A stretch of DNA of 62,370 bases, the filler included, from Collodictyon triciliatum (taxonomy: Eukaryota): assembly GCA_043381765.1 (NCBI GenBank). It is 6 parts of 6 records of this genome, joined end to end, with 100 filler letters (N's around TTAATTAATTAA, not from the genome) between each part and the next. Parts side by side here need not be neighbours in the genome. Positions count along the whole stretch, not along the records: positions 12,753 to 27,157 come from JBHJMP010002955.1; 5 more parts are not named here. The stretch is one strand, 5' to 3'. The translations under genes and the position numbers were made by a program. Below are positions 728 through 56,302 of the stretch, piece by piece. Numbering within the stretch: the first letter of the stretch is position 1; every line of letters begins with the position of its first letter. The notes under the pieces were generated by a model. The model was given only the letters and a program-made list of their open reading frames with translations. It made no database searches and had not been told where the DNA came from.

Positions 728-3700
728 ATGAGCGCAGAGGACTTCCTCCAGGCCTGCCTTTCGGGTGATCACGTGCGAGCAGAAGAGCTGATCCAACATG
801 GCCAATCAGTCGACGAGACAGACGAACACGGCCGCACAGCCCTTCACATAGCTTCACAGTACGGGTTTCTCTCCCTCGCGATGATTCTCTTATCGCACAG
901 CGCAGATGTAAACGCACGCGTCCACACAAAAGGCACTGCAGACAAAGCCGCAGCCTTCGAGACGGGCCATCGAACCCACGGACTGGCCAGGCCTTTATCA
1001 GACGGAACCACGCCTCTCATACTAGCTGTACAGCGTGGAGACCGCGATTTTACTCAGCTCCTGCTTGACCGTGGGGCTGATGTGGAAGCCCGTATTAGTG
1101 ATGGATGGACACCGTTTCTAATAGCAGCAAATGCCGGGTTTCTTCACGTGCTGGATGCTTTCTCGATGGACTCTATCGCCCGTTGTATCAACCGGGCTCA
1201 TGATACGCTGCGATACACTCCCTTGCATTTGGCTGCGCATAGGCAAGATCATGACATGATTCGATGGCTTCTGCATCACGGGGCTGACCCATCCGTCCCA
1301 GATGCTAATGGTTATACACCTGCCGCATTTATCCAACAAACCCGTCCTGATTTGGTGGGTCTGTTTGATGTTGATGAAGACTCGCAATATCCTCGATATA
1401 GTCCTGATTTGTCTCGCATAGACTCAATCTCAAATGCATTCCAGTTTCAAGTCGCTGATGGCTCTCAAATGCCTGATTCATATTCCAGTCGTGATTTGGA
1501 TAGCCTCTCTGATGCAGATGTTGGTTTGGGGACATTTGCCCAGGTTGCGGCTCAAGTACCTTTCTCTCAATATGCCATCCAGACAAACGGCTTTTTGAAC
1601 GATAGTCTTAATTACCTTCGTAGTCCTTCGTCTCCTCCTCAACTTCCGGACCCACACATCGAATTTGATGTGGAGCCGATCAGAGACTTGCCTCCTACAT
1701 CACCTATCGACGGAAATGCGTTCCTTTCGATGACAGGGTCTTTGTATACCTCGGAATCGTTTGTTGACAAAGAATTGGAGCAGATAGTTCATGATTCAGA
1801 CGTAATGAGTCGTAGTTTCCCAACTGTTTCATCTCCTCGACCAAAATCTGCTGCTGTGACCACCAGCACAACAAATAAGCCTGATTTACGAGGCATAGTT
1901 TCATAATACTTCTGTTTTCTTTTTTCTTTTTCTTTTTCTTTTTCTTTTTCTTTTTCTTTTTCTTTTTCTTTTTCTTTTTCTTTTTCTTTTTCTTTTTCAC
2001 AATCATCAACTAATACAATTTTTCAACATTTCCAGATACTGTGTCAAGACCATTGATTGATCATTCCGCATCAAACACTTCTATCATTATCCCTGTAGCC
2101 ACTATATCGAATATCGAAACCAAAATAATAGAACAGCCTCAAAAAGGACTTTTTCCTCAAGATGAAGTCGATGATGAACCTGCTCGTAGCTTAATAGAAA
2201 CTCCAAAATCTGATAGAAGCCCTGATGAAGAATATGCTCCTTCTCTTGTTGCAATTTCTCAGCCATATAGTTTAAATCATGAATCAATCTTAGAGGGAAG
2301 CAACATTCAAATAGAGCCATCTATACCAGTTGTTAACCATGGACCCACACATAATGAACACATGATACACGACCAAGAAACAATCATAAAACTGAACTCG
2401 CTTCAACAACAAATAACCGAACTTGATAAGAGAAACAAATTTTTAGAGCAAATATGCCTTAATGTTCAGCATCGATTCAACTTGCAAGACTCTTTGGAGC
2501 ACACACCTAGGGAAGAGCCATCAAAACATGACAATCAGATTCGATTTCAATCACCTGTCCAGAATTCTACACAAACATCCATTCAAGCCTCCGTCCAAAG
2601 CGACCCCCAACCGCCTCGCCGAGTTCCCTCTGTAATTCTAATCAATGAGCTCACAAACCAGCCGGAAGAGGCCGCTGTCAACGACGTCAACCACGAGTAT
2701 CAGAAATTCTATAACCACAAATCTGAAACACTGGAAGATTCTCAAAACAAAACCATTCAAAGCAGAGAGGATATACAAACATTAGAAGCTAATACATCGC
2801 GCTCTCTCTTTCGACCTCCCACACGTGGAATTACTCCGCAAGAATCCATGTATATAGCGTCTTATTCCCTTCCAAACCAAAGTCTGCAATCCGATAGCAG
2901 AACCAATCACCAAAATCACAAGCATCACTCACAATCTGTTCCTCAAATTCGAGACATACTATTGTTTCAAAACAACACTTCTCCGGCAGGAAGAGAAACA
3001 CATATTGTAGGTAATCCTTTGCACCTGCACGAGCCGTCATTACGTGCCATGCCAACATTGGATCCCCATCCATTTGGGCATCAGACAAAAGCGACAGAAT
3101 CCTTGTCTACATTAAATACAGCTGTAGAGTACAGAAATAGTGGTGCATTGCCCCATTCATACGTTCAACCTCAGTCCGAATCACAATCATCAAACATGTC
3201 ATCTTCACTCCTGAGAGATGCGTTGACACGTCAAGTAATGCAAACACATAACGGTCTATTTAGCTATTCGGTTGATAAACCTACAAGTGTGGTGAATAGC
3301 ACGTTCAACCCTGGACAGGTAGATCAAGTCATTTATGATAGAAATAGCCACCACATGATTCAACAAGGACACGCAAATGTATCAAATCAGAAAACCTCTC
3401 TTAATGCAAACCCTGCTCATCGCATGGAGCCAGCAAATCCTGTGCATTCCTGTGATGGTCAAAATTCATATGCACATCCATATTTTGACCAGAACATTCC
3501 CAGGAGCACCCCATCATCGTCACAAATACCCACACTCCCTGAAAATGCGGAAGCATTCCAGTCAATCAGAAGTGTTGGTTTGTATTCTCCCCTTTCACAA
3601 TCGCAATATTTGAATCCACCAATCTTGGTCGCTGGTGGGAATTTCTCACAGCCAAACCAGATACCTTTGCAAATGAGCAACCATCCAACGAATCGGTCTT

Positions 3701-6279
3701 ATATGAACATTGGTGCACCCCAATCTTATAGAGAACTACAAAATACTACTAATATGTTGGACCCACAGACATCCCCTCAAGTTTCTTTCATTAATCAAAC
3801 ATTACCAGGTGCGCAGTCATCTCTAAATACACAAGTCCATTACCCCCAGCACCAGCCATCGGCTAATTCACCTAGACAAATAGCACTTGTCGATGCTACT
3901 TCGTTGGTGTTAAATCAGCAGCTTCAACTGCACATCCAAAAAGAAGTAGAACATCAAGTAAAACAGATATTTGCAACGCAACAAAACTCTAACTCATTTA
4001 TGAATCATTCCAACCTGAATCAACAACAAACACAACAAACTGCCCAAGTTCACCAAAGCCCTCATTTAGTTTTGCCTCAAGTTCCCAGTCAACCAATAGA
4101 TCCAATACAGACTCATGCAAATTCCTATTTACATAATAGCCCTAATATTGCCCATGACAATCAAACGATACTCCAAAAGACATCAGACCAACTAGTATCA
4201 GGCTCATCAACATCTCAGTTATATGACGCACGTGCACCTCAGGTTTATCCGCAACAAGTACTTTTACCTCCATTCCTAGTGACGCCAACACACGGTCATC
4301 AAGAAGAACAATCAAATTCTTCGGTTTCTTTGCTACAAAGCCTTCAAAATCAACCAATTTTGTATGGTGCACAGCTGCCTCCTCAAGAGAATTACAGGCA
4401 AAGTAATTCCAATATAATTAGACCCGGCTTAGCTGTACAAACATCTCCACAGCTAATAAGGCCTTCAAATGTATCGCCGGTCTTACAGACCCAGAATCTC
4501 CATTCTATTTCAACAAGTCCCCAGGGTGTCCGTATCGAACCGCAAGTGCAATCTACCAATCAATCCTTATTACCCACTGCTCCTTCTGTCATATCTGCAC
4601 CTGTGGTTGTTTATGCACTCCAACCACAACACCCAAACGCTTCACTGCAAACAAGCATATCTCCTATTTCCGCCCAATACAAGTCGTCTGAATCTATCCA
4701 TCACAACTCAAATCAAATGCAAGGTTCGTCCTATGCCATTATCAACCCACATTTGGACGCAATATCTAGTACTGGAATAGACAGCTCTAAACTTACTGGC
4801 TCGAGGTCAGTAAGTCCATCTAGCATGCACATTTTAGGCACTCAAAACCAAACTCGTGATGTGTACAATTCCCAGCAATTTACAAATCAGCAAACATCAC
4901 AAGCTTCTTTTGGTAGTAATCTGCATGCTCATGGTACAGATAAAATGTCACACAACGCAGCTGACAATTCATCCTTGAGCGGTAATCAAAGTCATCTTGT
5001 AAATCATGTCCCAGTCCAATTTTACGTTCCATTTGATGAGATTAAATCTCACACAACCCCGCAACAACCCCCTGTGACACTCGTTCCCCATACCCACGCA
5101 AATCATTCTGCGTTCGCGCCTCTTATCCGTCCTGTTTCCCCTCCTCAGGCACCTCGAAGCCAAAATTCACACTACCCATCCCCTCCTTTGGATTATTTCA
5201 GGAACCACCCAGCCTCTACAACAAATCCTGCTTACACAAATGGTCAACTATTCCATCCGAACAATCCTAGACATAACGCAAGCCCTTCTCTACAAATGAT
5301 GCGTGGCCCATACCAGCGACCATTAATTTCTGACCAAATACTTCCCCGTGAACCGTACAGACCAGGTCCTATCCCGCCACACAATATCAGTTCTGACATA
5401 CCGCCTTTGTTTCAGAGGGATTCGCCACCAAATTATCCAAAAATCCCATATTTTGTGACTCCTTACCAACATGTATCCTCCAAAGACACCGGAAGAAATA
5501 ATGACTTTATCCCACCCGATACAGAAGCATTCAGGCGTGAAAAGAGATTGCTGAGCTCGAGTGTTGATGGAGACATTAACACATCGTATCACAACCAATT
5601 GAGTCGCCGTTATTTATCCCCGGCTGCCCTTGGCAGAGGATTAGAACCTCGACGGGAATCAGCAACACCCACTTCGTATGATTATCAGAGCACGCATGCA
5701 AATCAGTTTGCTGTCAATTCCTCATTACGTGGGCGAGCGGGTGCACAACAACGCTCCGGTCAGCTACAACCTCGAAGTATGAGCGCCACACAACAACACA
5801 GAGCAAGTGGCGCGAATGATCGACTGTTTATTCAAAACATACCACAAAAACAAGTCGCACAACCCACCATGTTTCACTCGAACAGGGTAGAACAAGGAAA
5901 TGGGCCTTGGATGGAGGTTTCTCGGTCGAGACCACGATTTTATGACCAACGATATCGTGATGACGATGCAAGAATGCTTTCATCTCGCTCTAGGGACTCA
6001 AGAACTTACCCAGGTTCTGACAAAGGCGAGCCACTTGCGACTCATTCGCATTTCCAATCAATAGATTATCAGTATCGTGCAGAAAATAGACGGGCATCGC
6101 TATCATCCCCGATACATCCACGACGTCGAGAGAATTCTTCCTATCAGCCCGCAAATAGACAGGGTGATTCTTACCCACGCTGGCCTAACACCGATAATCC
6201 ATTGACAGTCGAAAGGCAACAGCAAACGCAAAAAAGAAAAGATAGAAGACCGACATCCGAACGAGAACGCCCGCTGTGA
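728..6279 (+). CDS. Ankyrin-repeat protein with a long Q/P/S/N/H-rich low-complexity C-terminus (probable exons 728-1892 and 2036-6279)
   Basis: Ankyrin motifs GRTALHIAS, GTTPLILAV, GWTPFLIAA, YTPLHLAA. The ORF breaks at a (TTTTCT)n tract ending in TCCAG (2035), followed by a 1412-codon open frame. The frame-preserving join needs a GC donor at 1893. The join is inferred. Confidence 0.75.
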
Positions 6280-7107: not shown

Positions 7108-7161
7108 TCAGCGTCTTCGAGCGGGTCTGGCTGGGGTGCTTGGCGTGTGACTCCGACCCTG

Positions 7162-7240
<79 letters not shown>

Positions 7241-7872
7241 TTGTTTGTGGCTTGGTGAATTGGATTTGGAATCGGGGTCGGGGCGAGCGTGAGCCGAGCG
7301 CGAGCCTCTGCCAAGAATGCGCGCAGGATGGACTCAATGCGGGCAGGGTCTATGACTAGGTGGAAGCGAACCGCTGCGAGAAATTCCAGTTCGAGCGCGT
7401 TGAAGAGCTCCACCGGGATATCACCGAGCTGCGCAAACGTCAGATTGTTGTATGTTACATCCTCGATGTACTTTGCGGCTAGTGTGGTGGCCACCAGAAA
7501 GAGAGGGCGCAAGTTGTCCTGCGTCAGAGTGCAATCGCGGGCCCGAAGATAGCGCTGCATGTATAGGATACCGCCGCATATAGCCTCCTCTGAAACTAGC
7601 TGGAATCGGCGGACAAGGCGCAGCATATCTTCGACTGTCCGCGGCACGACAACAGCATCGAACAGGTTGATCATGCCCAAAGCGTCATGATTGCCCGGTG
7701 GTGTGGCTACTGCCGACGTGGAAGCGTTGTTGGGTGATAGTGTTTGGCGGGTGCAGCTGTTTTGCAGGTACTGCAGCACCTGAGTCAGCAGCTCTCGTCG
7801 CACAGTGTCGGGTTCGTCCTTCAGCAGGGATTCGGGGAAGCGGTCCACAGGGTTGTTGCGGCCTTCGCTCAT
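7108..7872 (-). CDS. PHO80/PREG-like (cyclin U/P-type) cyclin, intronless, with a (QS)n tail
   Basis: Cyclin box GILYMQRY...NLRPLFLVATTLAAKYIEDVTYNNLTFAQLGDIPVELFNALELEFL. Likely start is MSEGRNN at 7872 (the ORF is open to 7932). (CTGGCT)n at about 7159-7240 encodes the QS repeat. Confidence 0.85.
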
Positions 7873-8858
7873 TTTCTGGCAGCAGCAGCAGCAGCAGCAG
7901 CGATGTCTTTGAATCTGTGTGGATGGAGCCATCTTTTCAATACTTTTGATTTGAATCTGATTTCATTTTCTCTGCGGCCCGAGCCAAATCACGTTGAGTT
8001 CGTTTTTTTTAAAAAAAAATCTCAATAACGATTATTGATTTCATCAAAATAATGTGTTCTTTGTGGTTGGTTATTGGCGGGTGATTGAATATTAGTTGGG
8101 GGCATAGAGTCTCGTTGAATCGGCGGTATTACCCTGTGGGATGGCTATGGGTTCGAGTTATGCTCGTGCTGGCTGAATAAAAGGTGGAGAATCACTCTGC
8201 CGCCGTTTTTATAAGTCCTCTTGCGGCCCTGGAGATTCATGGAATTGGTGCGCACATGGGCAAAAATGCATCCCTCCTGAAATTCCCTTTCTTGTCTTTC
8301 AGACGGAAAAACTTTGGAAATTGTGATGACCACGATTCCATATTAGGCAAAACACTAATTTTCCATATGTGTCTAAAATTATGTATCCTGTTTAGGATAA
8401 TTATCCTGTCCAAATATGGCGAATTCAGCTTTATATATACTTATTCGTCAATGTATTAAAACCTTATTAGGAGGTCTTCCTGGGATTTTCCAACACCCCA
8501 AAGGCCTAATGCGTCGATATTTCTAGTTTTCATCCAGAAAAGGAGACGTGGTTCAATGAGAATTGCTATTAGTGGATTTTAATTATAAATATATAATTTA
8601 CGTAGCGATATAGCATAGGAGATTAGATCGTACAAAAAAAATTATCCTGTTTATGTAACACATCTGATATCTTTGCACTGTATGTGAGCACCCCATCGCC
8701 GCACTCCCACCCGACGCTGAGAGGCGAGTCGCACAGATACCTAATTCTGTCAAGCCATCACGCTGTCGTGCTGTCCGTCGTGCTTTCATGTTCGGTTTAT
8801 ATGAAAATATAGCACTCAGCCCGGTGGTAAGTACAAGTGGCCCACAAATTGGGCGGCG

Positions 8859-9528: not shown

Positions 9529-11745
9529 GGGGATAAATACAGTCTTGAGAAAGGTTCACCTATCAAGCAGCACTGATCAATTATATATATGATGGAAGTA
9601 ATGTCGAGTATTGCACCAAAGCAGGACGATATCCACCAAGTCGCTTCATCAGTTTGATGTGATGTATGAAACGGAATACGTGTATTTAGATAATTCAAAT
9701 AATANNNNNNNNNNNNNNNNNNNNNNNNNNNNNNNNNNNNNNNNNNNNNNNNNNNNNNNNNNNNNNNNNNNNNNNNNNNNNNNNNNNNNNNNNNNNNNNN
9801 NNNNNNNNNNNNNNNNNNNNNNNNNNNNNNNNNNNNNNNNNNNNNNNNNNNNNNNNNNNNNNNNNNNNNNNNNNNNNNNNNNNNNNNNNNNNNNNNNNNN
9901 NNNNNNNNNNNNNNNNNNNNNNNNNNNNNNNNNNNNNNNNNNNNNNNNNNNNNNNNNNNNNNNNNNNNNNNNNNNNNNNNNNNNNNNNNNNNNNNNNNNN
10001 NNNNNNNNNNNNNNNNNNNNNNNNNNNNNNNNNNNNNNNNNNNNNNNNNNNNNNNNNNNNNNNNNNNNNNNNNNNNNNNNNNNNNNNNNNNNNNAAAGAA
10101 AAGAAAAGAAAAGAAAAGAAAAGAAAAGAAAAGAAAAGAAAAGAAAAGAAAAGAAAAGAAAAGAAAAGAAAAGAAAAGAGAAGAAAAGAAAATGAAAATG
10201 AAAAAGAGAAAATTAAGAAATATCATACTTTCTAACAGAAAAAGAAAAAGGAACCCTTGATAAATAATTACCTTCCTCATAGCCGATGAAGCAGTTTCCT
10301 TTACGAAGCTATCGTCATTAAGTCGAGTCATATCAAGAAATCGAGTATACATTATTGCAATGTCTGATATAGGTAAACATTCCAAAGACCGAGAAAATGC
10401 GTAAGCGAGATGAGCATAGTTTTCGCCATAACAATCGGAATAAACATAATAAAAATTCAGTAATTTCGACACTAGTTCCTCGTGTTCTTCTTTAATTGCA
10501 GTGTGCGTGGAGATCAGCACGAGACGATGAACAATACTACGAATCATTTGGTCCATAGGTGATTGAAAAGGAGAACACTTGAGTTCGTAGCATCGTGAAT
10601 CGACAATTTTTTTGACTAAATGAAGTTTAAAGCATCCAACACTCAGAATAGGTCGAGTCCATTTTCTTCATTATTGATGGATAATAAATCTCAACCTTAT
10701 AACTTTCGAAGAGCATATATTTTGGGTGTAATATTCCACTTACTCCGAGAAGCTGCCTCGTCAGAATTCAAGCTCGTTTTCCATACATAAATTCTTGCTT
10801 TTGGTGTGAGTGTCCGCCCGATGAAGCTTAATCGAGTGGCATTATAATCAGCTGTTGATGCCGAAGACATAAGCGATGCAATAGATGAATCCAGCATGGC
10901 ACGGCGATTGATCAATAGTGTCTTTTCAGTTGGTTCGATAGAAGCCGTATCCTTAGCGCGCAATAGAAAATGAATCAACCACCATTTTTTTTTTCATGAA
11001 AAGTCGCATGAGGACAATTAAGTATTCTCAAAAGATGAATTAAAAACGTACAGCCGAAGACATCTTGTTTGATGATGTGCGCAGCCTTGGTGTGATTGAA
11101 AGCAACATAGTTAGTAGAAAAGGCCTGATAATAGGTGAATACCAAATTTCAATATTGAACTTGCCTTGCCTGCATCGATTCAACATAGTATTTTTGGATG
11201 TCCGCCTGGAACGCTTCGTAAAACTAATTCACCGACTACATTTAATACCTGCGCATTTGAATTTATCCTCATAAAATCGATTTAAACAAACCGGTTCTGA
11301 ATATAAATGATTGCGGGAAGCGTGTAATTTTACACAAGACATTAGATATGAGGTTATTTCGCTGGTTAAAAGCATTCTCCTGGCCGATTCCATATATTCA
11401 ACAACATCCCGATTAACCACTTCTGCAAAATGAAAAACAATGCCAAATCAAAACAAGATCGGATTATTGCCGCTATTTGTGACGGCATGAATAGAAAACA
11501 TCAACAAGTTAACAAATCGCATGAATAATAAGAGTGATAAAGTGATAAAATTACAAATTAAATATAAAGCCAATTAGACACACCATTAGGAAAGCATATT
11601 CGGTTTAATGTTGGACCAACGACCATGAGAAATACTTGCTTGTTTTCAGGGCTACCAAAAAACCTCTCTGATGCAGCCTTTCGTCAGGAGAAAGAAAAGT
11701 GAAATAATAATAATGATAATAATAATAATGATAATAATAATAATG

Positions 11746-11842
<97 letters not shown>

Positions 11843-12128
11843 AAACATCAGAACAATATGTTTTATTAAAAAAAAACATTTTAACAGTGGTAATGAAGGG
11901 TAAGAAGCGAAGGATGCAGAGCGAAGTAACGGAAAGGGTACTGGAGACCAAAGCCGGCTCGCATGAGAAATATACTGACATCAGGGCACAGACATGAAGA
12001 GCTGAAGTAACACCGCAAACCTGAATCGGCTCTTTCAACCATCGCAGAAGATCACCAAGACTCTTCCCTGAAAGTGCTGCGTATTCCTTCGCGTGGGACA
12101 CCCACGACAGCTCGTCGATCGACTGCAT
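8859..12128 (-). CDS. Multi-exon hypothetical protein
   Basis: Series of open, protein-like segments on the minus strand (MQSIDELSWV..., VNRDVVEYMESARR..., DTASIEPTEK..., DQMIRSIVHRL..., IPFHTSHQTDEATWW..., SSVLPFVFSAWRR...*) separated by microsatellite-filled GT-AG introns and an N gap. No family recognised. Confidence 0.5.
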
Positions 12129-12652
12129 CGTAGGCCTTCTCCAGAGGCCAAGCGTCCGCTGAAGAGCAAACTCTGTTCTAGCTGGTCTTTTCGTCCATGC
12201 GTTATTGTTGTTATTACTTTTTCATTCATTTATTTACTACTACTTCATTTATTGACGAGACTGGAAGGGGTATGCCATCTTTCGATTGATAAACTTAGCG
12301 CACTAGTATCCAAGATCTCCCCACTTTTTTTCACAAAGGCCGCGCAGTGGTGAAGGCTCCCAGGAAAGACCCGACAGCCTGTTTTTTAGATGAAAGTGTA
12401 TGTTTTTTTTTTAAAGGATTAAAAGAATTTTCTTCAGTGTATTTTTAGCGCTGTTAAGTCCCTTGTCAAGAATACACTTTGTTTGCTTTCTGAACGGTTG
12501 CATTCTTTACATATGAGACATCTAGACATCTATACAACTTTTTTGAATTTCCCTTCAGTTGCATACAACCAGTTCTTTTTCGCAGTTGCAGCACATCTTG
12601 GAGTTCTAAATTCATCTACACTAACTATTTCAAAACGTTTGGATAGTATTTT

Positions 12653-12752
12653 NNNNNNNNNNNNNNNNNNNNNNNNNNNNNNNNNNNNNNNNNNNNTTAA
12701 TTAATTAANNNNNNNNNNNNNNNNNNNNNNNNNNNNNNNNNNNNNNNNNNNN
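12653..12752. other. Artificial scaffold-joining spacer N44-TTAATTAATTAA-N44
   Basis: The 12-mer has stop codons in all six frames; the identical 100-nt construct occurs five times in the window. Confidence 0.97.
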
Positions 12753-13797
12753 TTGTTTGTTTGTTTGTTTGTTTGTTTGTTTGTTTGTTTGTTTGTTTGT
12801 TTGTTTGTTTGTTTGTTTGTTTGTTTGTTTGTTTGTTTGTTTGTTTGTGTGGGATAAAATCGTAAAGATGATCTGTTCTTTCCCCACGGTGTGAAAAAAT
12901 GTAGTAATCCCAGCGAGAGAGACAGGGTTGAGAGAAGCAATAAAAAAACAAAACAAACGCAATGGATAAGAAAAAGTCTCCTTTGCTGGGGAATAAACTC
13001 ACCGAGAGAATAAAAAGACCCATTCTTCAGAATATAATATTATTACACTGGCGTTCTTTCCTTCTTCTCCCAACCCGCCACATCATGAAGCCGAAAAAAA
13101 AAAAGCAAGCGATTGGAAGAAGCGATCCCGAGAAGAAGGACGAGACCGACGCCACAGCCCTGCCCCATGGAACGCCTACTGATCGAACGCAAACTGAGGA
13201 GGCCGACGCAGAGAGCGAAAAGGTCACTTTACCACATTCCTTGCTACACAGGTTATGCACCAAGACACACCGACGATCAAGACACCAGCTGCCACCGACC
13301 CGTGAGTACAATAGCCTATGAATAAGACGGAGCAAGCCCCTATGATGGAGCAAGGTAGAAGGGAGCTAATAGTCTTTTGCACTTGGAGCACAAGCACGCA
13401 ACACGCAATGAGCACAACTCCGTGGCACGGACGACTCCAACGCTCCTAGCTTGCCATCACAATGAGATCTCAAAACATACAATACTGCGGCCCACAGAAC
13501 AATACATTTTTTTATTCTTATTATTTCGTATTAGGATTATGTGAAAGATGAAAAATCAAGTAAAGCCAAGGATTTCCCTCAATGAAGTGGGTTAAAACAA
13601 TTACGTAAAAAACAGGGAATACGTTTTATGTCATTCAAAAATGATTGAGATATTCTGTTGAGAACTTTTATGATAATAAATGATATTTTAAAAAGTTTGA
13701 ATATCGAATGACATATTAATATAATAGAAAAAACTATATAGTCCACTTTGACGATGCAATCATATAAGCAAAAGGTTATTTTATCGCGTTAGCCAGC

Positions 13798-14196
13798 ATG
13801 AGCGACGATCAAGTTTCCAAATATTTGGGTAAAATAAATTAAAATAAATATGATATTAAATTATTTTTTAGTATTTAGAATAATTTAATATCATAAGAAA
13901 AGTGGCTGCAAAATGAGGAGCAAGATGAAGCAAAAAAAAAAAAAAATAGCGAGGGAGAGAAAAAGCGGTCTTGCAAAAGTCAATAGGTAAAATGAGAGGC
14001 CTGAGGAAAGAGAAGGTAGACTAGCAAAGATGCGGGTTACGATAGACAAAGACGGCAAAGGGAGATTCTCCAGCAAACAGATGAAAGGCTCAATGACCAA
14101 GCGATTTGCGCAGGGAATCGAAGAGAACAAGAAACAACTGAAGAAAGGATTCATAGGCTTCAGGCTCTAGCCATCGACCCACGGGTAGCAAGTTAA
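13798..14196 (+). pseudogene. Degenerate STPR-like 23-aa repeat coding fragment (Helitron-associated type)
   Basis: Allowing one frameshift at about 14036: ERPEEREGRLAKMRxYDRQRRQR / EILQQTDERLNDQAICAGNRREQ / ETTEERIHRLQAL, a 23-residue period with E1 and R9-L10. Possible first exon from ATG 13798 with a GT-AG intron; in-frame stops are present. Confidence 0.55.
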
Positions 14197-15011
14197 TTAT
14201 AAGTATAGTGCTCAGTATTAGTTGCTCTGATTCAATCACCTTTTTTTTTCCTTTTCTTTCCTTTCCTTTCCTTACCTTTCCTTACCTTTCCTTTTTCTTC
14301 GTTTCTCATTCAGCCTGTAAATGGATTAACTTCATTACAAAGGTTGTGATGAACTTGGTTTTATCCCTTTCAAAACACAACACTTTTTATATAACGAGAG
14401 TGTACACATATATAGCAGTTTGTTGCACAGAAAACCATCGAATTAAATCTGGGTTGACAAAAGCAGGAACTTTGATGAATCCAAGAAACAACCTGAATAA
14501 TATAACAGTATAATTAGTATATATGATAAGCTTAAAAAATACTTAATTATCTAATTCTAATCCTGTAATCAATTTATATTATATTTTTCATTTATTAAAT
14601 ATTAGTTCAAATATTCAAAAATTACCAACAAGCCCTTGCCTTGGCCCAGACAGAACCCATCCTATAAACCTGCCACCAAACACGCATTTCAAAAAAGCAT
14701 ACTATCCACACTTGCGGCGGTAATCATGTTGTTTGGGGCCGATATGTTGACTTTCAGTCGCAATGGCTATACGGCCGTCCTTTCGAACTCGCCGAATCGG
14801 CGCTCAGCGTTTTGTCTCAAATCACATATAATTTTTTTTTTGTGTGTTTATTTGCCACAATGCGCACATTTTGAGAGTCTTGGTAGATGCTTCATTGTAC
14901 ATAAATTGATTTTATGCAGTTTTTTTTTTATATATATTAAATTGACTTAAGTTTTATTAAATTGAAAACTCGGTGGTTTTCTAAAGGAAAAAGTAAAACA
15001 AAGACTTTCAG

Positions 15012-16810
15012 ATGAAGAAAAGAAAACGGCTTCAGTCCGAGAATCTAAAGTGTGTAAAACCATGCTACCGAAATGTAAAAACATCTCTAAAGTCGGTTGT
15101 AAAGAATGCGTATGACTATTACAAAATCAGCGATACGGTTTTATTGTGTCATAATTTGGTTACCGACACTTATCTGTTTGCAAGATGTTACATACTGAAA
15201 TCACAACAACTCCCAACAATCAATGAAATGTTGTTTTTGTACGCTTTAAAGATAGTAGGTATAGTTTCACAAGATAGACCCGCATATTTTTTTAAAAAAA
15301 CCAGATATGAGAAATGACATGATGACTTTTTATCTCGATTATTTTCTATTCCTTTTGTCCCGATAAGAACGCTTTCTGTTGGTTAGACTGTCTCATGCAT
15401 TACCGTACTCAGCGAAGCAAATGTTAACAGCTTATCGTAATAACATTAAGGAGCATTTTGTTAAGAGCTTACTGCGCTTTATAAACCAAACAGTTCCTAA
15501 GAGATGAGAATATCACGGAAGCTAGTAAAAAAGGCAGAGTTACGAAAGCTAAAAAAAAAAAAAAAAAAAATCACAAAAACTAAAAAAAAAGGCAGAGTTA
15601 CAAAAAAAAAAAAAAAAAAAAAAAGCCATCTTCAAGAAACTCGAAATACCAAAATAATACAAAGGATGGGCTGCAATGCATATGCATCATATCATTCCCA
15701 GCGATATTGTAAAAGGTATCGAATATAACGTCAAAGTCAATCCAAATAAGTGCATTCCATGTCTGATTTACATGAATCGCATTTTTGAGGACATTGGAAC
15801 CAAACTATTTCAATCAATCTCTATAAGAACTAACAATATATCATGTCATGTTACTCTAGGTACTGCGTGTTTGATAGATCTATTAGTATTGTCTGAAAAA
15901 AAAATCATTAATGAATAATATATTGGATGCAAAGAGACCCTATGGTATAACTTCTTTGAAATGAAGAAGAGGGTCTTTCATCAAAGAGACTACAATTTCA
16001 AATACATGATACAAACAGACGGCTTGGCAGTGTCATTATTGTTTGAAAAAAAAAAAAGGTATTTCAAATTCAAAATACAAATATAACCAAAAAACCCCAA
16101 GAATATGTTTACATAGATGAACTTTCCGAGGGGCAGTTATCTTTATTAGCGAAATAAAAAAATAGTTGGAGTTGATGCAGGCAAGTTTGATTTGGTTTAC
16201 ATGGTGGATGAGATAGGTAAGAAATTACGTTACACGACTACCAAACAAGACATGATAGCAAATCTCTTAAAAATTCACAAAATACACTTGCGCGAGAAAA
16301 AAGAAAAGCACAATTCTTCAGGGATATACATGGTAACAGATTTACAGAATGCTGTTTCTTTGGGTCTCGTGTCTTTTGAAGAGAATCAGCAGTTTGAGAC
16401 ATCAAGAGTATCTTTAATCGATTTAGAGACAAAACTGAGTAGACATATTTCATGCACGGTCGATTATGAAAAATTTCGAAAATATGTATCTATGAAATCA
16501 AGACACCAGATAGTTTGCCAGATTTTATGAACAAGTAACTTTTCGAAAGATGAGATGGAGACCGTATGTCAATACATAAAGAAGTGAACAGTTGTTTATG
16601 GACTAAATCGAAAAGGCATTAGGCAAGGATGTTGTTCTGGCGTATGGAAACTGGAGCAGAAAATCTCAGATGAAACATTTTATGGCAACAATCGGAAGAG
16701 GATTACGAAAAGTACTATTCATGTGTTTCGAAGCAGTTAGTGTAGATGAATTTAAAACCTCCAATATGTGTTGCTACTGCGAAAAAAACTTGATTATATG
16801 ACACTGAAAG
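15012..16810 (+). pseudogene. Fanzor1 (TnpB-related RuvC nuclease) pseudogene, 3' end interrupted
   Basis: Collinear motifs across several frames: VKTSLKSVV; LPYSAKQMLTAYRNNIKEHF..LLRFIN; YNVKVNP..LIYMN..KLFQ; FKYMIQTDGLAVSLLF; RuvC-I KIVGVDAGK (D 16174); VDYEKFRKY; FRKMRWR; LAYGNWSRKSQMKHFMAT; VDEFKTSNMCCYC (E 16748, then the first CxxC). Multiple frameshifts and stops. Confidence 0.85.
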
Positions 16811-16811
16811 G

Positions 16812-16911
16812 ACCCAACAATGCACACTTTGCAGCAACGGTGATGAATCCATTGAGCACACATTTGTGCAATGTCCCTTCGCTCAAAACCTGCGCGAAAC
16901 AGCCGGTGAGA
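16812..16911 (+). mobile_element. Non-LTR retrotransposon (L1/Tx1-like) ORF2 zf-RVT fragment running into the N gap
   Basis: Reads TQQCTLCSNGDESIEHTFVQCPFAQNLRE, the CxxC..E..EH....CPFA knuckle. Nucleotide match to the reverse complement of about 42310-42405, e.g. ACTTTGCAGCAACGGTGAT(G/A)AATCCATTGAGCACACAT. Confidence 0.75.
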
Positions 16912-17563
16912 NNNNNNNNNNNNNNNNNNNNNNNNNNNNNNNNNNNNNNNNNNNNNNNNNNNNNNNNNNNNNNNNNNNNNNNNNNNNNNNNNNNNNNNNN
17001 NNNNNNNNNNNNNNNNNNNNNNNNNNNNNNNNNNNNNNNNNNNNNNNNNNNNNNNNNNNNNNNNNNNNNNNNNNNNNNNNNNNNNNNNNNNNNNNNNNNN
17101 NNNNNNNNNNNNNNNNNNNNNNNNNNNNNNNNNNNNNNNNNNNNNNNNNNNNNNNNNNNNNNNNNNNNNNNNNNNNNNNNNNNNNNNNNNNNNNNNNNNN
17201 NNNNNNNNNNNNNNNNNNNNNNNNNNNNNNNNNNNNNNNNNNNNNNNNNNNNNNNNNNNNNNNNNNNNNNNNNNNNNNNNNNNNNNNNNNNNNNNNNNNN
17301 NNNNNNNNNNNNNNNNNNNNNNNNNNNNNNNNNNNNNNNNNNNNNNNNNNNNNNNNNNNNNNNNNNNNNNNNNNNNNNNNNNNNNNNNNNNNNNNNNNNN
17401 NNNNNNNNNNNNNNNNNNNNNNNNNNNNNNNNNNNNNNNNNNNNNNNNNNNNNNNNNNNNNNNNNNNNNNNNNNNNNNNNNNNNNNNNNNNNNNNNNNNN
17501 NNNNNNNNNNNNNNNNNNNNNNNNNNNNNNNNNNNNNNNNNNNNNNNNNNNNNNNNNNNNNNN

Positions 17564-17636
<73 letters not shown>

Positions 17637-17716
17637 AAAACAAAAAACAAATCAAACAATGAACCCCAAAAGGCATGATTCCCAAACACACAACCCACTC
17701 ACGCAAACACAAGCAG

Positions 17717-20700
17717 ATGTATCCGTATTACCCCGGCGTCGGGCGCAGCAGCACAATGGGAGGCGCGGGAGGCACGTCCACTTCCACACGCTTTGTGGGG
17801 TCTGCAGCAAACGGCCTCGGCCAAAGTGTCGTTGCCTTTCCCCCTGCGCTTTCCCCACGAGGCGCAGTCAGCACAAGCACGCCGATCGGCCCAACCGCAA
17901 GCACACCACGAGGCCAAAGCAGAGACAACTCGTTGTCGGACGAGAAGGCAAACGCTCGACGCAAAGAAAAAGACAAGGAAAAAGAAAAAGAAAAAGAAAA
18001 AGAAAAGGGCAAGGACAAGCACGGAGAAGTCGTTGGCCAGTGGCGGCTCGGCAAGAGTCTGGGCGAAGGCGGCTTCGGGCACGTCTTTCTGGGCACGCAT
18101 CTTCTCAGCAAAGAGCGCTCGGCCGTGAAGCTGCAGACGGACGACGGAGACGCGGCCGAGAAGGAAAAGGGCCGGCTGGAGCGCGAGATCGAAGCCCTGC
18201 AGAGACTCTCGGGGCATCCAAACATCATCGCCATGGCCGAGGTTGTGCGGCAGCCGGGGCGCCTGGCTCTGGTCCTGGAGCTGGCGCCAGAGGGCGACCT
18301 GCTCGATTACACATGTTCGCGCGGATGTCTGTCCGAGGCGGAGGCGCGCGTCTTTGTGCGGCAGATTGTCGCGGCGCTGAGCCACTGCCACACACACCGC
18401 ATCGTGCATCGCGACCTGAAGCTGGAAAACATCCTGCTCTTCCCGGGCCATGTGGCAAAGCTGGCCGACTTTGGGCTGTCGGCATCGCTCTCGGTTGCGG
18501 CCCCGGGCTTTGCCTCTGCGCTCGGGCGCGCGGCTCCGGATGACCCGGACAGTCTTCGCACGCTGTGCGGCTCGCCCACGTACCACGCGCCAGAGATGCT
18601 GCTGGGCAAGGCGTATGCGTACGGCGTGGATGTGTGGGCACTCGGCATCGTCATCTACGCAATGCTGAACGGCTCGTTCCCCTTCGACAGCCCGTCGCAT
18701 CCGGTCCTGTGCCAGCAGATCCTGCACGGCACGTATCCGCCGCTGCGCTCGGCCTCTGCAGACGCAAAGGATCTCGTGGCCAGGCTGCTGCAGCTGGACC
18801 CCACCCGCCGGATCACGCTCCACGACGCAGCCGCCCACCCGTGGCTGGCCGAGCCGCAGATCCGCAGCTCTTCGTACACGCCGGCGTCCGATGCAAAGCC
18901 GGCCCTGGGCGGCTCCCATGCGGATCTGCAGGCTCAGGTCCAGCAACTCATGCAGCTGATGGAGACAGACAAGCGCCAGCGGCTTGCAGAGAGTGAGGTC
19001 ACTTCCAGTCGGATGCGGATGCTGGAGGCAGAGTTGCGTGTCTTGCGCGAGGTGGTGACGCCCGATTCGCACACGCGGTCCTCTGAGATATCCCATGCTG
19101 CCCAGCTCGCTGATCTTGCTCGGTGGAGGAAAGACGTCGACCGGGATAGAAAACACCTGGCAGACGTGACAGATAAATCCTCCACGCTCCTTGCGAGTCT
19201 TGATAGGTCTCTGCAAAGGATATCGGCAGATGTGGCTCCTTTCATCCAAAGCAGCAAGGCCCTCGGTCAGGCACAGTCCTCCCCACTATCGACTCAGACA
19301 TCCCAACTTACCGAGGCTGCAGTGGCTTCTCTTCAGACACAAATCGATGCGCTCTATGAACACACAAAATCTGTTTCTTTGGATATATCGAGAAACATGG
19401 ACCAGGTTCTTCAATCAAAACTCGAGGCAAAAACGTTTTTGTCTTGGAAGGCGCAAATGGAAAATGATATGCAGGCTTCTAACTTGCACTTGGAGATGTT
19501 GAAAAACAGTCTCCAGGCAGTCCAGAAGGACATCACAGAGCTACAAAAAGTCACTTCACAGCAACCGGCAGAAATGAAGGAAATTCAAACATTGGTTGAA
19601 CAAAATCATGCAGAGTATATTACAAATTTACATGACCAGCGCGCAAAGTTCAATAACTATCAGAGAGAAATCGACTTATTCAAGAAGGAGCAAACAAAGA
19701 TGAGTTCCGCAATCATACAAATGCGTGCGTCAAACCAACCACAGCCACAGCCACAACCACAGACTCAAATACAATCTACAAGTCCTCTGTTATTGGCTCT
19801 AGAAGAAAATATACAAGCGATGGCGACACAGATTCAAGATTTATACTCGTGGAGAGAATCGCAGGAAAATGTCAGTGCAGCGCCTCCGCTCTTTGCTCCT
19901 GATACAAAGACACCTTCCAACCAGGTCACGTCCACTGCGGTGAAAGGCTTAGAATCATGGAGAGAAAATATTGAGAAACAAAATACGGAGATGATACATG
20001 AATACGAAGCAGAGCTAAAGGTACGTACCAATTTATTCATTTTCTACCTTTTTTTATTTTCCTTTTCTTTTTCCTTTTCTTCTCTTTCCATTTTTCCCTT
20101 TCGTTTCGTTTCGTTTCGTTTCGTTTTAATTTAATTTTTATTTATCTTTGCATAATTTCTTGTCAATATTGCCTTGTTACTAGAAATTCAATCAAGAGGT
20201 CAGCAGGATGTCTCAGATGGTGCCCAGTTCGTCGTCTGCTACAGGGCAATCAGTTCTTAACTCTCTGGCATCTCCTGACTCTTCTGAAGTAGACACTGCA
20301 ACACAATCATCGTTCGGGGAATCAAAGCCCATCGAGCTCTCTATCCTCGCAAAGCTCGAACGAGAACTCGAACTACAGAAGTCCAGAATCTCCTTTATCG
20401 ATGAGAATCTAAGAATATTCTGGAGCCTGAAGGCTTCGAATATGAAGGTACTAGCTCTATGACAAGCACATATTTTCTTTCCACCAGAGACTATTCAAAA
20501 ATGGACGGTATATGTACACCGATTGTGAAGTAACGTTATTTATACTGCTGACATTACCTCCTTGCAAAGCGACGTCAGGAAATTGAGGAGGTAAAACGTT
20601 CGGTTGACTTGAGTGGAATCAAAATCAGAACAACAATAGAAGATATTAAAAAGAAGCACCGAAGCGAAATGGAAGAGCTTCGATCAAAATTTGATACAGA

Positions 20701-21570: not shown

Positions 21571-24500
21571 CTAGGAAACACTGGCCTTAAGGAATGCTAA
21601 ATGGTCTGCGATTACAATACGCACGCCATGAAGCCACTGTAGCGAAACCAAGTCTGGGTCGTTGTTGAATTTCCCGTATGTTAGAACCCAACGAGCAGAG
21701 CCGTATTCCGGACGACCTGCTCGGTCCATCAGCACAGGCGCACTCAAAAGCGGAGTTGAATTCGAGACGACACCAGCAAGGTCGGCCTTTTGCGCAAACG
21801 CAACTGCCTCACGAAACGAATTACGGCGAGCATCATACAAACTTCCAACCACACCACTCGTCAAATAAAACACTGGATACTTTCCTTGCTTGCGGCGACA
21901 TAAGAGACAGATATCTGGGTCAAAAGACGAGAAGTAAATCTTGCGGTCTCCAGCCTCATCAAAGACCTGTGCCAGAATTACGTCCAGATACTCATCCATC
22001 TGGAAGTAACCCACAAGATGCTCATCGTCGGCTTCGTCAAGACTCGGATACTTCAGCTCGATGTTAAACCCTGTTGATGGGCTGACTTTTGAAAACAGCT
22101 CTCGCAGGGATGGGAATGGTTCACGAAAGGGAGCAGGTGAGTAGTCTGTTCTGGTTGCGGGTGTTGGCGGTCTGTAAGGGCTCCCTGGTTTGTATATGAG
22201 CGATAGATTCATATTAATAAAGTCCTTCATGGTTTTCCCATCAACTGCTGCCGCCGCTTTGGTGGTTTCTTGTTTGCTTCTCAGGAGTGGAAGGGTTGGG
22301 TCCGAAAGTGACCTTTTTCTGGTCTTCATAGTGGTAGATTCTTGGTCAATATTGGTCTGGGCTGGCGGAGGTAAATGAAGGCCATCAAAATCGTTGGGTG
22401 TTTTCATTAGCTCAGATAAGGTTTGGTGGTGGACGCCCATCAAAACACCTCGGCGCTTCATTGAAAAATCATGGAAAATGATGCAATCTCGGTCGCGGGT
22501 AACATGCGCATCAAACTCAACCTTGTGCCGCACATATGAAAATAATGATGTTGATGTATATTCTTCTGAATAAGTGCAATTGAAAAGCAACATTTTGGTG
22601 CTTTTACAAGAAAAAAAAAGCTCTTACATATTCCATTCCAAGGCTGGCTGCATAATTGAAGGACGATATTGTATTTTCCGCAAAATGTGTTCTGCAATCA
22701 TACATAATAATTTTAAAAAAATATAAATGATAAGCTTTCCATAAAATTGCAAGGACACTTCGTCATACGAAAGAAAAGAGGGACATAAGTCTTGCAGTAT
22801 TACCAATTCAAATGAATATACATGGAAAAAAAACCTGCGAATATCCCCTACAGACGCGCCTTTCTCTGAACCACATCCTCTGCAATAATTCAAATTAAAC
22901 TTTACATAATTAAAATACCAAACCTGCATACACGATAATACTTGCGATAGAATCTAGTACCTGTGGCCGCATAACCTTCGGGTTAGAGAAACAACGCCAC
23001 TATCTGATGTGCTGCATCTCTTGTGTTTAAATGGTGAAACAACCAAGTATTCCAGGAATAATCGCCCAGTGATAGTGTGAGGCTCTCTGTAGCTGTACAC
23101 AAAAGTCGACAGAGCGCCATATTTCTATGAGCAAAGACTTCAATAAATTCTCTTTCTTTTTTTTTATGAATGAATTAACTAAAAGACAAAAATATCATAT
23201 CCATATTGTAATCAAACAAATGCTCAAATTCACAGTTTCTAGTTGCTCTGGGTGGAGAAATGCTTTCCCTATTATTTGACCCCATTCGTCAAATAGGTTT
23301 ATTTCTATCGAGAGAAGTTCACTCTCTACGCCTCCAGTAAAAACCATAAAGCTTTCCTTACTTTCAATAAATGGTGACTCGACTGAATAGTAAGTTTTGG
23401 AATCGCCTTTGGAGCGGAAGATGAGCTGTTTGTTGAGACACATAGTTGTAATTTTTTCGTGCATTTGCGAAAAGAAAATTCTACTATTTTCTCAAGGTAT
23501 ATGTCTTAAACAGAGAGCACAAAATACCTTAGAAACTTCGACACCATCTTTCATCTCCACCACTTTATGTTTGATTCGTTGGGCTGTATGTCCAAGTGTG
23601 ATATATAGCTCTAGATTATCAGCTCCATTGCGAAAATAAAATCGTTCACCTTGCTGGTTTTAGAAAATTGTTTTATATGATCTCTTTAGTTCGTGTAATT
23701 ATCACCTAATCGGAGAGAGATATAAAACAAAAGCAAAAAAAAAAAAAAAAAAAAAACCAAACAAGATTGACAAGGTGTTATGGTGTATAGCCTCACTTGC
23801 ACAATTTCCCCATCAGTTACATAGTTGAATGAATCGACTACATATAATGACTTGCGCTCAGACTCGATCGTCTCCGGAAGTTCATCATTTATGTTGGGTG
23901 ATGAATAGTAATATGTAATAGTACTTTTGAGAGGTATTTCCACTTGAACGAAGAAAGTATCTATTAATATTATATGGCAAATTACTTTTTACTCAAATTG
24001 CCTATCGGTTGCAAATGTTAGACATTACATATTTGTAAGAAAGTCTGGCTTACCGGGGTATCTGGGTAGATTGCAAATGACTCGACTTTTATATTCATTT
24101 TCAAACAAATTTGGTTCCTCAATATGCATGTCTACTTTCATTTTTGTGGGATTTACAGAGGCAATTTCGTAATTGAGAAGAAGCTGAGACTTTTTCAAAA
24201 ATGATGCAACCTAGGAAGGCCGGTATCCATTTTTAAATTAAGAATGAGATGAAATCGAGTCATTGAACTTACTTTTTTTTTCTTTACAAAGGAGTTTTTT
24301 TTATTTATTTTATTTTTATTTTTATTATTAAAGAATATCGAGTGATATATTTTACTTTGAACAAAACAAAGCCGTTGCCTGCTGAGGGTGACAATCCATC
24401 CAGCATATGAGGCATATTTGTGACCAGACCCTCAGGGTGGGAGTCACTAACAGCATCTTGACTGGAAAATATCAACTCTTTGGGGTGTGTGTGCAAAGAG

Positions 24501-27157: not shown

Positions 27158-27257
27158 NNNNNNNNNNNNNNNNNNNNNNNNNNNNNNNNNNNNNNNNNNN
27201 NTTAATTAATTAANNNNNNNNNNNNNNNNNNNNNNNNNNNNNNNNNNNNNNNNNNNN
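27158..27257. other. Artificial scaffold-joining spacer
   Basis: N44-TTAATTAATTAA-N44. Confidence 0.97.
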
Positions 27258-36405: not shown

Positions 36406-36734
36406 TTGACCTTTGAGGGTTCGCTGGTCTCAAGCTGCCTGTTTTCAGTCCTGGTGGCAGGTTGTTTGTTTAAGAAATGTCTTTAGCGATGACAAGTCGT
36501 GTTACCGTGGTCTTTGGGTGGTTGTCCGTGTCTTTTTATTCCGGGCTGCCTCTGTTTAAATGTCATTTTGATCGCATCACAAATTTCAGAGAGAATATCC
36601 TTTTTGGTATAAAATTGGGACATTTTGTCCCTGCTTTATGATTATTCTGTTTCATTCTGTGTTAATCTCATGGTGCGCTCTCTTTTCTTCTCCATTCTTT
36701 TGTTTCGTTCTCTATTTATTGAACTAGTCTGTTT

Positions 36735-36842: not shown

Positions 36843-36942
36843 NNNNNNNNNNNNNNNNNNNNNNNNNNNNNNNNNNNNNNNNNNNNTTAATTAATTAANN
36901 NNNNNNNNNNNNNNNNNNNNNNNNNNNNNNNNNNNNNNNNNN
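36843..36942. other. Artificial scaffold-joining spacer
   Basis: N44-TTAATTAATTAA-N44. Confidence 0.97.
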
Positions 36943-40452: not shown

Positions 40453-42099
40453 TTCCACGTCCGATATTAACATAAAATACCGGAATGATCCGAAAAAGTT
40501 GATTTTGCTTTCTTATAGACATCATTATTTGATTCATAGTCCTTTTTTTTAAAAAAATAACATAACATGTCTCTTTATTTCTTACCCAGTTATTTTTTCT
40601 TTTATTCCATTCAAGTGAAGGAAGGCTTTTTTTACATTATTTATTCCCCAGATATACTTTCGATTTATGTATGTATGTATGTATGTATGTATGTATGTAT
40701 GTATGTATGTATGTATGTATGTATGTATGTATGTATGTATGTATGTATGTATGTATGTATGTATGTATGTATGTATGTATGTATGTATATCTTTTTCAAG
40801 ATATTTTTAATCGATAGAAGCAAATTCTAATAATATAAAGCTTTTTCCAAAAAAATAAAATGTAATGTATGTATTTATACTTTATAATACAGTTTTAACT
40901 ATTAATGACCCAGAATCGTTCATTATAACTGAGACAACTTCGATTTCAAATATATAAACACGCTGAACCCGAAGAAGGGTTGATAATATCCGGTCCATGT
41001 CATGAGAAGGAAAAAATACTTACGAATAATCAATTAAAATTTTCAAAAAAAAACTGATAAATACGCAAATGGAAGCTTTCCATCCATTTACTCTCTTTCT
41101 ATCCCAAACAGCCTCGGAGGTGAATTTAAATATATAATTGAACTACAAAAAAAAACATATATAGATATTCTGCGCAACCATCTATATTCCTAATTACATG
41201 CCTCGATAAGACGTATCCCTGAATCATATATGCTATTTTTGGCATTCTTATCTATCTGAACGCAAAAGAAGTGAGAGAGAGATAGGAATGTGCCATGAAA
41301 TATCTCACAAAATATTTAACCATGCTACTCACGTAACCAATTCACCACTTGTAGCCCTACCCGATCAACCCATTCTCTATGACTTCTTTTCATAATGTGA
41401 TTATTTGCAATAAGATCTCATAGTCTCATATTCTCTTTACTTTAAGCACCTATTCCGCTCATTTTGTGAATTATCCCTGATCCACTTGGAACATAATAAA
41501 TTAAGAATGATATAATATGGTCTAATGATTACGATAGCTAATTTTCTTTGGATCTTATATATTTTTTTTCAACAATAACTTTGCGTTAAAAAAGTATAGG
41601 ATCTTTCCCTTTCTATTCAATTCAAAATGAAATCATAGGAAAACTATAATTGAACACGTCCAGCGCATATAGCAAGCAACTTAATATTATCAGTAAAAAT
41701 TAGAACTGTAATCTGAAGTGGCTTGAAACGACACCAGAATTTATCATATTTTCGAATTCAATTTTTTTTTGTTTACGATTAAAGGATAGAAAAAGTTAAA
41801 AACTGTTTGCAATATTTTCTGCTTTTTATATGTGTAGTATTTTCCTGGTCTGATATCTTTCTTCATTAGTAGCTATGCGAGGAGTTTCTATATGGAGATC
41901 TGCCTTCACACAAGTTATTGCATAAGTTGGTTATATTCATGGCATAATTAGTTACGAACCCATACAAACAATACCTTTTTTTCAATATAATCACGATTTG
42001 ATAGGCTAGCTTCCACATGCCTCTTATCACAGGGTATGACTAATAAAGAATATGTAAGTGGCCAAAGCAGCTGATGAGAAAAGAGATCTGTATGATGTC

Positions 42100-46523: not shown

Positions 46524-46623
46524 NNNNNNNNNNNNNNNNNNNNNNNNNNNNNNNNNNNNNNNNNNNNTTAATTAATTAANNNNNNNNNNNNNNNNNNNNN
46601 NNNNNNNNNNNNNNNNNNNNNNN
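46524..46623. other. Artificial scaffold-joining spacer
   Basis: N44-TTAATTAATTAA-N44. Confidence 0.97.
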
Positions 46624-56202: not shown

Positions 56203-56302
56203 NNNNNNNNNNNNNNNNNNNNNNNNNNNNNNNNNNNNNNNNNNNNTTAATTAATTAANNNNNNNNNNNNNNNNNNNNNNNNNNNNNNNNNNNNNNNNNN
56301 NN
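56203..56302. other. Artificial scaffold-joining spacer
   Basis: N44-TTAATTAATTAA-N44. Confidence 0.97.

Follow-up and report, generated by a model that had tools for sequence, protein, structure and literature searches.

The DNA analysed here, hereafter the window, is a 62,370-nt stretch from Collodictyon triciliatum (assembly GCA_043381765.1), a eukaryotic scaffold with N gaps. Its plus strand carries a Fanzor1 pseudogene at 15012-16812 (copy 1), followed directly by the 5′-truncated tail of a long interspersed nuclear element (LINE; 16813-17640, +). A second, shorter Fanzor1 pseudogene (copy 2) lies on the minus strand at 12440-12652, and the non-coding stretch upstream of the copy 1 start codon (14500-15011, +) is part of the repeat unit in other copies. 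We conclude with high confidence that 15012-16812 (+) is a dead Fanzor1 gene copy, a decayed and LINE-cut member of a multi-copy family.

Copy 1 is collinear, across three reading frames, with residues 2-544 of its nearest full-length relative, the 634-aa Fanzor1-type protein P0004. Three collinear tblastn pieces, with a summed E of about 1e-75, covered P0004 residues 2-89 (15018-15260, +), 103-447 (15307-16503, +) and 449-544 (16496-16792, +). A frameshift-aware dynamic-programming alignment to P0004, by which the lesions were also mapped, was likewise collinear, with 211 of 532 aligned residues identical. A read-through of the relic with X at the breaks matched P0004 at 35% identity over 604 positions (E 7e-108). 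A profile of 26 full-length relatives (A1) was run unfiltered on the six frames of the whole window. It returned domain E-values of 8.9e-11, 2e-63 and 2.6e-40 on the copy 1 pieces, from 5′ to 3′, and of 8.9e-12 and 0.052 at copy 2, while all rows outside both relics had negative bit scores. The initial annotation had called the gene near full-length, and this holds for 543 of the 634 residues, the last ~90 being missing.

From the ATG at 15012, the plus strand reads, in order, VKTSLKS, NNIKEHF, IQTDG, VGVDAG, GNWS, VDEFKTS and CCYC. All of the motifs named in the initial annotation were found in the order and at the places it gave. The RuvC-I catalytic Asp codon, GAT in VGVDAG (16174-16176, +), falls in the column of P0004 D372 and, through it, of D383 of SpuFz1, the Spizellomyces punctatus protein (residue 777 of PDB chain 8gkh_P). 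The relocated catalytic Glu codon, GAA in VDEFKTS (16748-16750, +), falls in the column of P0004 E530 and aligned directly with E935 of the same chain, which is SpuFz1 E541. In this chain, SpuFz1 D383, N385, E541 and D606 are numbered 777, 779, 935 and 1000, an offset of 394 obtained from the alignment. D16174 and E16748 had been set beforehand as the test of the assignment, and both align with catalytic columns. P0004 D372, E530 and D581 were invariant in 26 of 26 relatives. SpuFz1 is described as binding two Mg ions via D383, N385, E541 and D606 (Saito et al. 2023, PMC10432273).

In place of the Glu that TnpB carries at the canonical RuvC-II position, the window has the Gly of GNWS (16646-16657, +), aligned with GDWS in SpuFz1 and with GNWS in PpFz1 of Parasitella parasitica. 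Fanzor proteins are described as having Gly or Pro in place of the RuvC-II Glu and a compensating Glu ~45 residues downstream (Jiang et al. 2023, PMC10530073). From the GNWS Gly to the relocated Glu, the distance in the window is 34 codons. Bao & Jurka 2013 (PMC3627910) describe G500 as conserved in Fanzor1 and give the motif D-X(125,275)-[TS][TS]-X-X-C4-X(5,50)-RD. In the window, the D to TS distance is ~194 codons, the TS codons are ACC TCC (16757-16762), and CCYC lies at 16769-16780 (+). Together these form TS-x-x-CxxC (TS NM CCYC; 16757-16780, +), the first half of the C4 zinc ribbon. Collinear homology (residues 2-544), the RuvC-I Asp and the rearranged RuvC-II were all present in copy 1, as were the TS and first CxxC of the zinc ribbon, the rest of which, including the second CxxC, is cut at 16812. 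The RuvC-III RD Asp was not found in copy 1, being beyond the LINE cut, while copy 2 has both CxxC pairs and TRDL near 12460, corresponding to P0004 R580-D581. At the other end of the protein, the relic start, MKKRKR (window 15012-15050), is basic, as is that of the viral relative P0004 (MKRKKADKEPPDLKRKP). From their sequence, both look like nuclear localisation signals, a theme described for Fanzor proteins (PMC10530073).

Comparison with solved structures placed the relic among Fanzor1 proteins. The 95-aa C-terminal piece P0001 (16514-16801, its two TAA stops read as X) matched the PDB chains of Parasitella PpFz1 (6.8e-9), Spizellomyces SpuFz1 (5.3e-5) and Guillardia GtFz1 (0.063). A phmmer search of 1.84 billion representative proteins with the same piece returned 1088 matches at E ≤ 1e-3, of which 176 passed E ≤ 1e-10; the top match had E 1.4e-30 and 64% identity. 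P0004 matched SpuFz1 (9e-37, residues 14-607), PpFz1 (7e-34) and GtFz1 (7e-16), and no chains besides these three Fanzor1 proteins at E ≤ 1. Profile A1 matched PpFz1 (1.4e-93), SpuFz1 and GtFz1 (1.8e-88 to 9.2e-77) over their full length. The other 6 of the 9 rows (TranC, Cas12m, 'Transposase' and LIM proteins) had E of at least 1e-3 and involved the zinc-ribbon columns only. Since only Fanzor1 chains match full-length, the relic is Fanzor1, and not Fanzor2 or TnpB, which bears out the identification as a decayed Fanzor1 that had been made from the motifs. A phmmer search of the PDB with the 126-aa RuvC-I fragment gave no match.

Copy 1 has four frameshifts, near 15289, 16071, 16150 and 16517, and nine in-frame stops (15364 TAA, 15505 TGA, 15523 TAG, 15526 TAA, 15550 TAA, 15655 TAA, 15916 TAA, 16577 TAA and 16604 TAA). 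The main body, 15289-16515, is mostly in one frame, with two local shifts. With the ~90 C-terminal codons also gone, copy 1 contains no open frame able to give a protein, and the relic therefore does nothing now. Four of the nine stops fall in an A-rich low-complexity expansion inside the gene (15505-15650, +), which includes a 58-nt tandem duplication (15509-15566 and 15567-15624, 83% identity). The other five stops, all TAA, are substitutions within conserved blocks that align well, and not changes of run length. The shifts at 15289 and 16150 fall within or next to A/T runs of 6-7, and that at 16071 is ~14 nt downstream of an A12 (the runs being T7/A6 at 15287-15299, A12 at 16046-16057 and an A run from 16156), while the 16517 shift is not at a run. 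Once decay had set in, the accumulation of frameshifts and stops and the expansion of the A-rich microsatellite would have been neutral.

The 3′ end of copy 1 was lost to the LINE. The LINE tail consists of a zf-RVT piece (16794-16909; PF13966, E 3e-7), a 652-N gap (16912-17563) and then poly(A), after which no Fanzor sequence resumes. Positions 16813-16907 are 81% identical to 42402-42307, and the likeness of copy 1 to copy 2 stops at 16812. Contigs of three public runs (X1, X5 and X6, described below) that match from 16813 onward have unlike sequence before it. The LINE is 5′-truncated and was inserted at 16812/16813, in place of the last ~90 codons. Because of this cut, copy 1 is without the second CxxC and the RuvC-III Asp. 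The non-long-terminal-repeat retrotransposon fragments at 16813-16911 and 17564-17640, and also at 42307-42402 (-), show the zf-RVT motif and the poly(A) tail. Contig depth at the LINE fragments exceeded 1000 in X5 and X6, the highest of the whole aligned stretch.

Copy 2 aligns with P0004 residues 517-584 and contains at least three frameshifts. Its nucleotide identity to 16709-16812 of copy 1 is 80%, and it retains VDEFRT, CCNC, the second CxxC and the RuvC-III Asp in TRDL. It is cut by a contig end or linker at 12653, and weak profile likeness continues to ~12390. At 12653-12752 it adjoins an N44-TTAATTAATTAA-N44 block, in which the 12-mer between the two 44-N runs gives stops in all six frames. 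Such N44 blocks look like linkers between concatenated contigs. With a linker-like block between the two relics, the ~4-kb spacing of copy 1 and copy 2 may be artificial.

Beyond the window, Logan contigs of four coded public runs (X1, X5, X6 and X7) were aligned on 14500-16911. In the runs holding matching sequence, among which there was no RNA run, the shares were all ≤0.12. At 80-99% likeness, 358 contigs of X5 and 381 of X6 aligned to this stretch. Binned by likeness (≥99%, 95-99%, 90-95% and <90%), they numbered 39, 84, 122 and 113 for X5, and 38, 98, 136 and 109 for X6. Both runs gave depth in 29 of 30 bins, the gap being the A-rich repeat, and as many as 17 different contigs overlapped a single site. 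The freshwater-metagenome runs X1 and X7 contributed 38 and 11 pieces, respectively. The element is thus repeated, in multiple diverged copies, in at least two organisms.

The other copies also bear on the lesions of copy 1. At 15364 and 15916, the T that begins a TAA stop in the window is G in nearly all covering contigs, and at 16563 other contigs read the letter that gives the residue of P0004. Several of the window lesions are therefore private to copy 1. Sister readings of the element also occur in public data: P0002, from a 767-nt contig where a sister copy stays open for 209 aa, P0008, and P0011, an NCBI record in which a frameshifted reading of the window recurs. A search of metagenomes for exact 8-residue patterns yielded no relative. 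A second one, with alignment A2, found relatives in 474 of 599 stretches. The best of them was only 54% identical, on a contig of the length of that bearing viral locus L001 (254,533 bp) and in a range overlapping it, and no close family member with flanks was obtained. The initial annotation had suggested a family that may have intact copies. The family is multi-copy, with sense codons at two of the window stops, while among the 40 of 653 contig differences listed no intact copy was established.

Beyond the A-rich expansion, the sole extra material relative to P0004 is a 33-codon in-frame segment at 16315-16413 (+). P0002 has a 33-residue insert in the same place, of the same length and with little sequence likeness. 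The segment is a family-specific insert and not an intron. Elsewhere the relic is collinear with uninterrupted viral ORFs (open reading frames), in keeping with the initial finding that no introns are evident.

The repeat unit reaches beyond the coding region. Single contigs of X5 and X6 bridge 14636 to 15012 and 14691 to 15101, with 10-12 contigs covering each site, which carries the unit back from the ATG to 14500 or further. Within this AT-rich region, a block of mixed composition lies at 14606-14830, and the depth over 14662-14742 was 2-3 times that of the Fanzor body in all four runs. The block may be an end region common to shorter, ORF-less derivatives of the element. Alignment of copy flanks had been proposed as a way to define the element ends, the target-adjacent motif (TAM) and the omegaRNA, and none of the three was defined in the window. 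In the TnpB superfamily, the guide RNA is described as encoded at the 3′ end of the gene, and the RuvC fold as split by a zinc ribbon (PMC10530073). The omegaRNA look-up rests on one decayed sequence, and copy 1 is without its 3′ end. An ARAGORN search found no tRNA, and the non-coding flanks had only short, chance-level blastn matches to the viral loci described below.

The closest labelled relatives of the protein are intact genes on giant-virus metagenome contigs. Atlas clusters nearest P0004 were 92-100% viral, mostly Nucleocytoviricota, and relatives were encoded by 259 of 293 candidate stretches in IMG/VR. Viral loci were kept for comparison (n = 79), many from giant-virus bins. The relic read-through was 33-35% identical, over about 600 residues, to P0004, L001, L002, L004, L006 and L007. 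A FastTree phylogeny was built from 143 rows, comprising the relic, 66 viral ORFs and 76 unlabelled proteins, with those under 550 aa left out except for five close ones. It grouped the relic with P0002 and P0008 (local support 96), and this trio with L001, L002, L004, P0003, P0004 and P0009 in a nine-row group (support 89). Judged from these comparisons of sequence, the relic is kin to giant-virus Fanzor1, as its motif style had suggested. One member of the nine-row group, P0003 (378 aa, JGI/IMG), is a clear Fanzor1 fragment named '6-pyruvoyl-tetrahydropterin synthase' by one source, probably a mis-annotation.

In the viruses, the gene is part of a defined transposable unit. L001 2631-5952 aligns with L002, L003 and L005 at 74% identity, and the unit itself (L001 2620-5970, and likewise in L002, L003 and L005-L008) is 3.3 kb long and Tc1/mariner-like, with 33-bp inverted ends. 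It encodes an intact 634-aa Fanzor1 and, in a divergent gene beside it, a 346-aa transposase with a helix-turn-helix and a DDE_3 domain (Tc1/mariner/IS630-type). The right end of the unit begins ~15 nt past the Fanzor stop codon. Among the 79 viral loci, a transposase homologue was present in 12 and an exact 18-nt end core on both sides in 7. This is the PGv-1-type architecture as described in Bao & Jurka 2013 (PMC3627910). The best ungapped match of the viral end motif in the window was 21-22 of 34, within the range of shuffled sequences.

Several results weigh against the interpretation of copy 1 as a dead member of a mobile Fanzor1 family with viral kin. At the level of the protein, Pfam scans of seven single window fragments and of the read-through C-terminal piece found no Fanzor-related family (the blank on every single fragment being what the initial annotation had anticipated in saying that no single ORF shows the relic), and word-indexed protein searches gave no match. 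Copy 1 is without two defining Fanzor1 parts, the second CxxC and the RuvC-III RD. The frameshifts by A/T runs could reflect slippage or sequencing or assembly error, and at 16605 other copies read G, which gives TGA, still a stop unless a neighbouring letter also differs. At the level of the element, Rfam searches found nothing at gathering thresholds in the whole window, nor at E ≤ 1 in 12000-15100. Predicted RNA folds of 14600-14830 (+; z -0.48) and of 12230-12470 (-; z -1.06), downstream of copy 2, were no better than those of shuffles. A repeat search of 11900-17000 returned low-complexity pairs and the likeness of copy 1 to copy 2 only, with no terminal inverted repeats. The viral end motif had 0 matches in the window at ≤3 mismatches, and no viral neighbour ORF, the transposase included, had a tblastn match to the window at E ≤ 1e-3. 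Finally, the tree is unrooted, with local support only and no labelled eukaryotic Fanzor1 rows, and thus gives no direction of virus-host exchange.

The foremost alternative is an endogenous viral element, in which case the relic would derive from a giant-virus genome that had integrated, rather than from a host transposon family. Its nearest labelled relatives are on giant-virus contigs, and its GC content of 33% is close to the median of 32% for 80 viral Fanzor ORFs, neighbouring host ORFs being at 43-55%. However, identity to the viral proteins is only ~35%, and the ORFs next to Fanzor1 in the 79 viral loci are without a match in the window at the threshold just given. The window ORFs of at least 150 aa that were scanned are of cellular type (ankyrin, kinase, GDPD, cyclin, RING) or of no family. 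The many diverged variants in the runs of two organisms and the LINE insertion are as in an old nuclear repeat. We consider an endogenous viral element improbable and retain the interpretation of copy 1 as a decayed member of a multi-copy Fanzor1 family.

There is a very slim chance that the organism has an intact gene here and that the breaks are sequencing or assembly errors. Three of the four frameshifts are in or near A/T runs, indels at those runs vary among copies, and gaps and linkers break up the assembly. Errors at runs would not, however, account for the five TAA substitutions in conserved blocks or for the 16517 shift. The 3′ end, moreover, is replaced by a LINE, and copy 2 is independently frameshifted. 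An alternative genetic code was likewise rejected, because TGA and TAG occur among the stops besides TAA, the frameshifts would persist, and two of the TAA codons begin with G in other copies.

Descent from another TnpB branch, either Fanzor2 or a contaminant prokaryotic TnpB, is scarcely credible, as the features in its favour, a D...TS-x-x-C4...RD motif described as common to all branches (PMC3627910) and weak Pfam Cas12f1-like_TNB matches in 6 of 10 relatives scanned (5 of the 6 below the curated cut-off), are set against Fanzor1 N-terminal blocks (KTSLKS, NNIKEHF and TDG), a contig that also bears a LINE and eukaryotic genes, and no Fanzor2- or TnpB-named chain at E ≤ 10 with A1, save 'Transposase' (0.62, zinc ribbon). 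TnpB of IS200/IS605 (e.g. ISDra2) and Fanzor2 belong to the same superfamily as the Fanzor1 relic, but differ from it in an N-terminal half unrelated in sequence and, for TnpB, in the canonical Glu where the relic has Gly. Their chain matches are confined to the zinc ribbon.

Among Fanzor1 proteins, the relic resembles SpuFz1 (PDB 8GKH, 9CEU-9CEZ; PMC10432273) in block order from the N-terminus to the zinc ribbon, and has the Asp, the Gly-for-Glu and the relocated Glu in the same columns. The two are nevertheless distant, the relic being frameshifted, stop-ridden and without the part that holds SpuFz1 D606, and it has no recognisable 30-nt inverted repeats or omegaRNA region. The best solved match is PpFz1 (PDB 9CF0-9CF3; Xu et al. 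2024, PMC11423790), with which FRKMK/RW, GNWS and IDEFRTS..C..C are held in common. PpFz1 is intact, active and larger, whereas the relic is dead and cut short. The giant-virus Tc1/mariner Fanzor1 elements (L001-L008, PGv-1 type as described in PMC3627910) encode proteins of the same clade. They have a DDE_3 transposase and 33-bp ends, however, neither of which is in the window, and the host family has the 33-codon insert.

By analogy with these systems, the ancestral protein would have been an omegaRNA-guided double-strand DNA endonuclease of ~630 aa. Its single RuvC site would have comprised three residues, the Asp of VGVDAG, the relocated Glu of VDEFKTS by the C4 zinc ribbon and the Asp of a C-terminal RD. 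A DNA transposon presumably carried the gene as cargo. TnpB helps to keep its transposon at the donor site, and for Fanzor such a role is only inferred. Guidance by RNA, cleavage and transposon maintenance would all apply to the ancestral protein, by the same analogy.

Copy 1 is a real but ordinary molecular fossil, Fanzor1 being already known as the TnpB-superfamily branch of eukaryotes and giant viruses. With the family, its structures and its spread already published, a dead copy alone adds little. The relic does flag a host multi-copy family with giant-virus kin, and so offers a usable case in which to study the exchange of RNA-guided nucleases between virus and host. A fuller scenario would have this Fanzor1 family exchanged with giant viruses, moving on a vehicle other than Tc1/mariner, marked by a 33-residue lineage insert, and with some copies elsewhere in the genome still intact and active, each with an omegaRNA and a TAM. 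We offer it tentatively and think it rather unlikely as a whole. Should there be intact sister copies, they would add to the natural Fanzor1 variants that could be tested as compact genome editors. For annotation, the relic accounts for an otherwise 'empty' AT-rich stretch among host genes.

The surrounding genes and repeats were also recorded. An ORF at 2014-6279 (1421 aa) is uninterrupted and has no Pfam family. An ankyrin-repeat ORF lies at 566-1906 and a cyclin-domain ORF at 7108-7962 (-). Downstream of the LINE tail, a protein kinase ORF (17663-20134) has an open frame of 823 aa and a GC content of 55%, and it is followed by a GDPD-domain ORF (21571-22623, -) and a RING finger ORF (35563-36429, -). 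The Atlas clusters reached with this kinase gave no usable taxa, one of them being labelled Foraminifera from 2 records. Paired 44-N runs 12 bases apart, as beside copy 2, occur also at 27158-27257, 36843-36942, 46524-46623 and 56203-56302. The last four pairs are ~9.68 kb apart and A-rich runs border several of them, the letters between having been read at 12653-12752 only. Long microsatellites at 12753-12850, 40650-40800 and 11690-11860 translate as (TNKQ)n, (YVCM)n and poly-Leu/Ile/Tyr runs.

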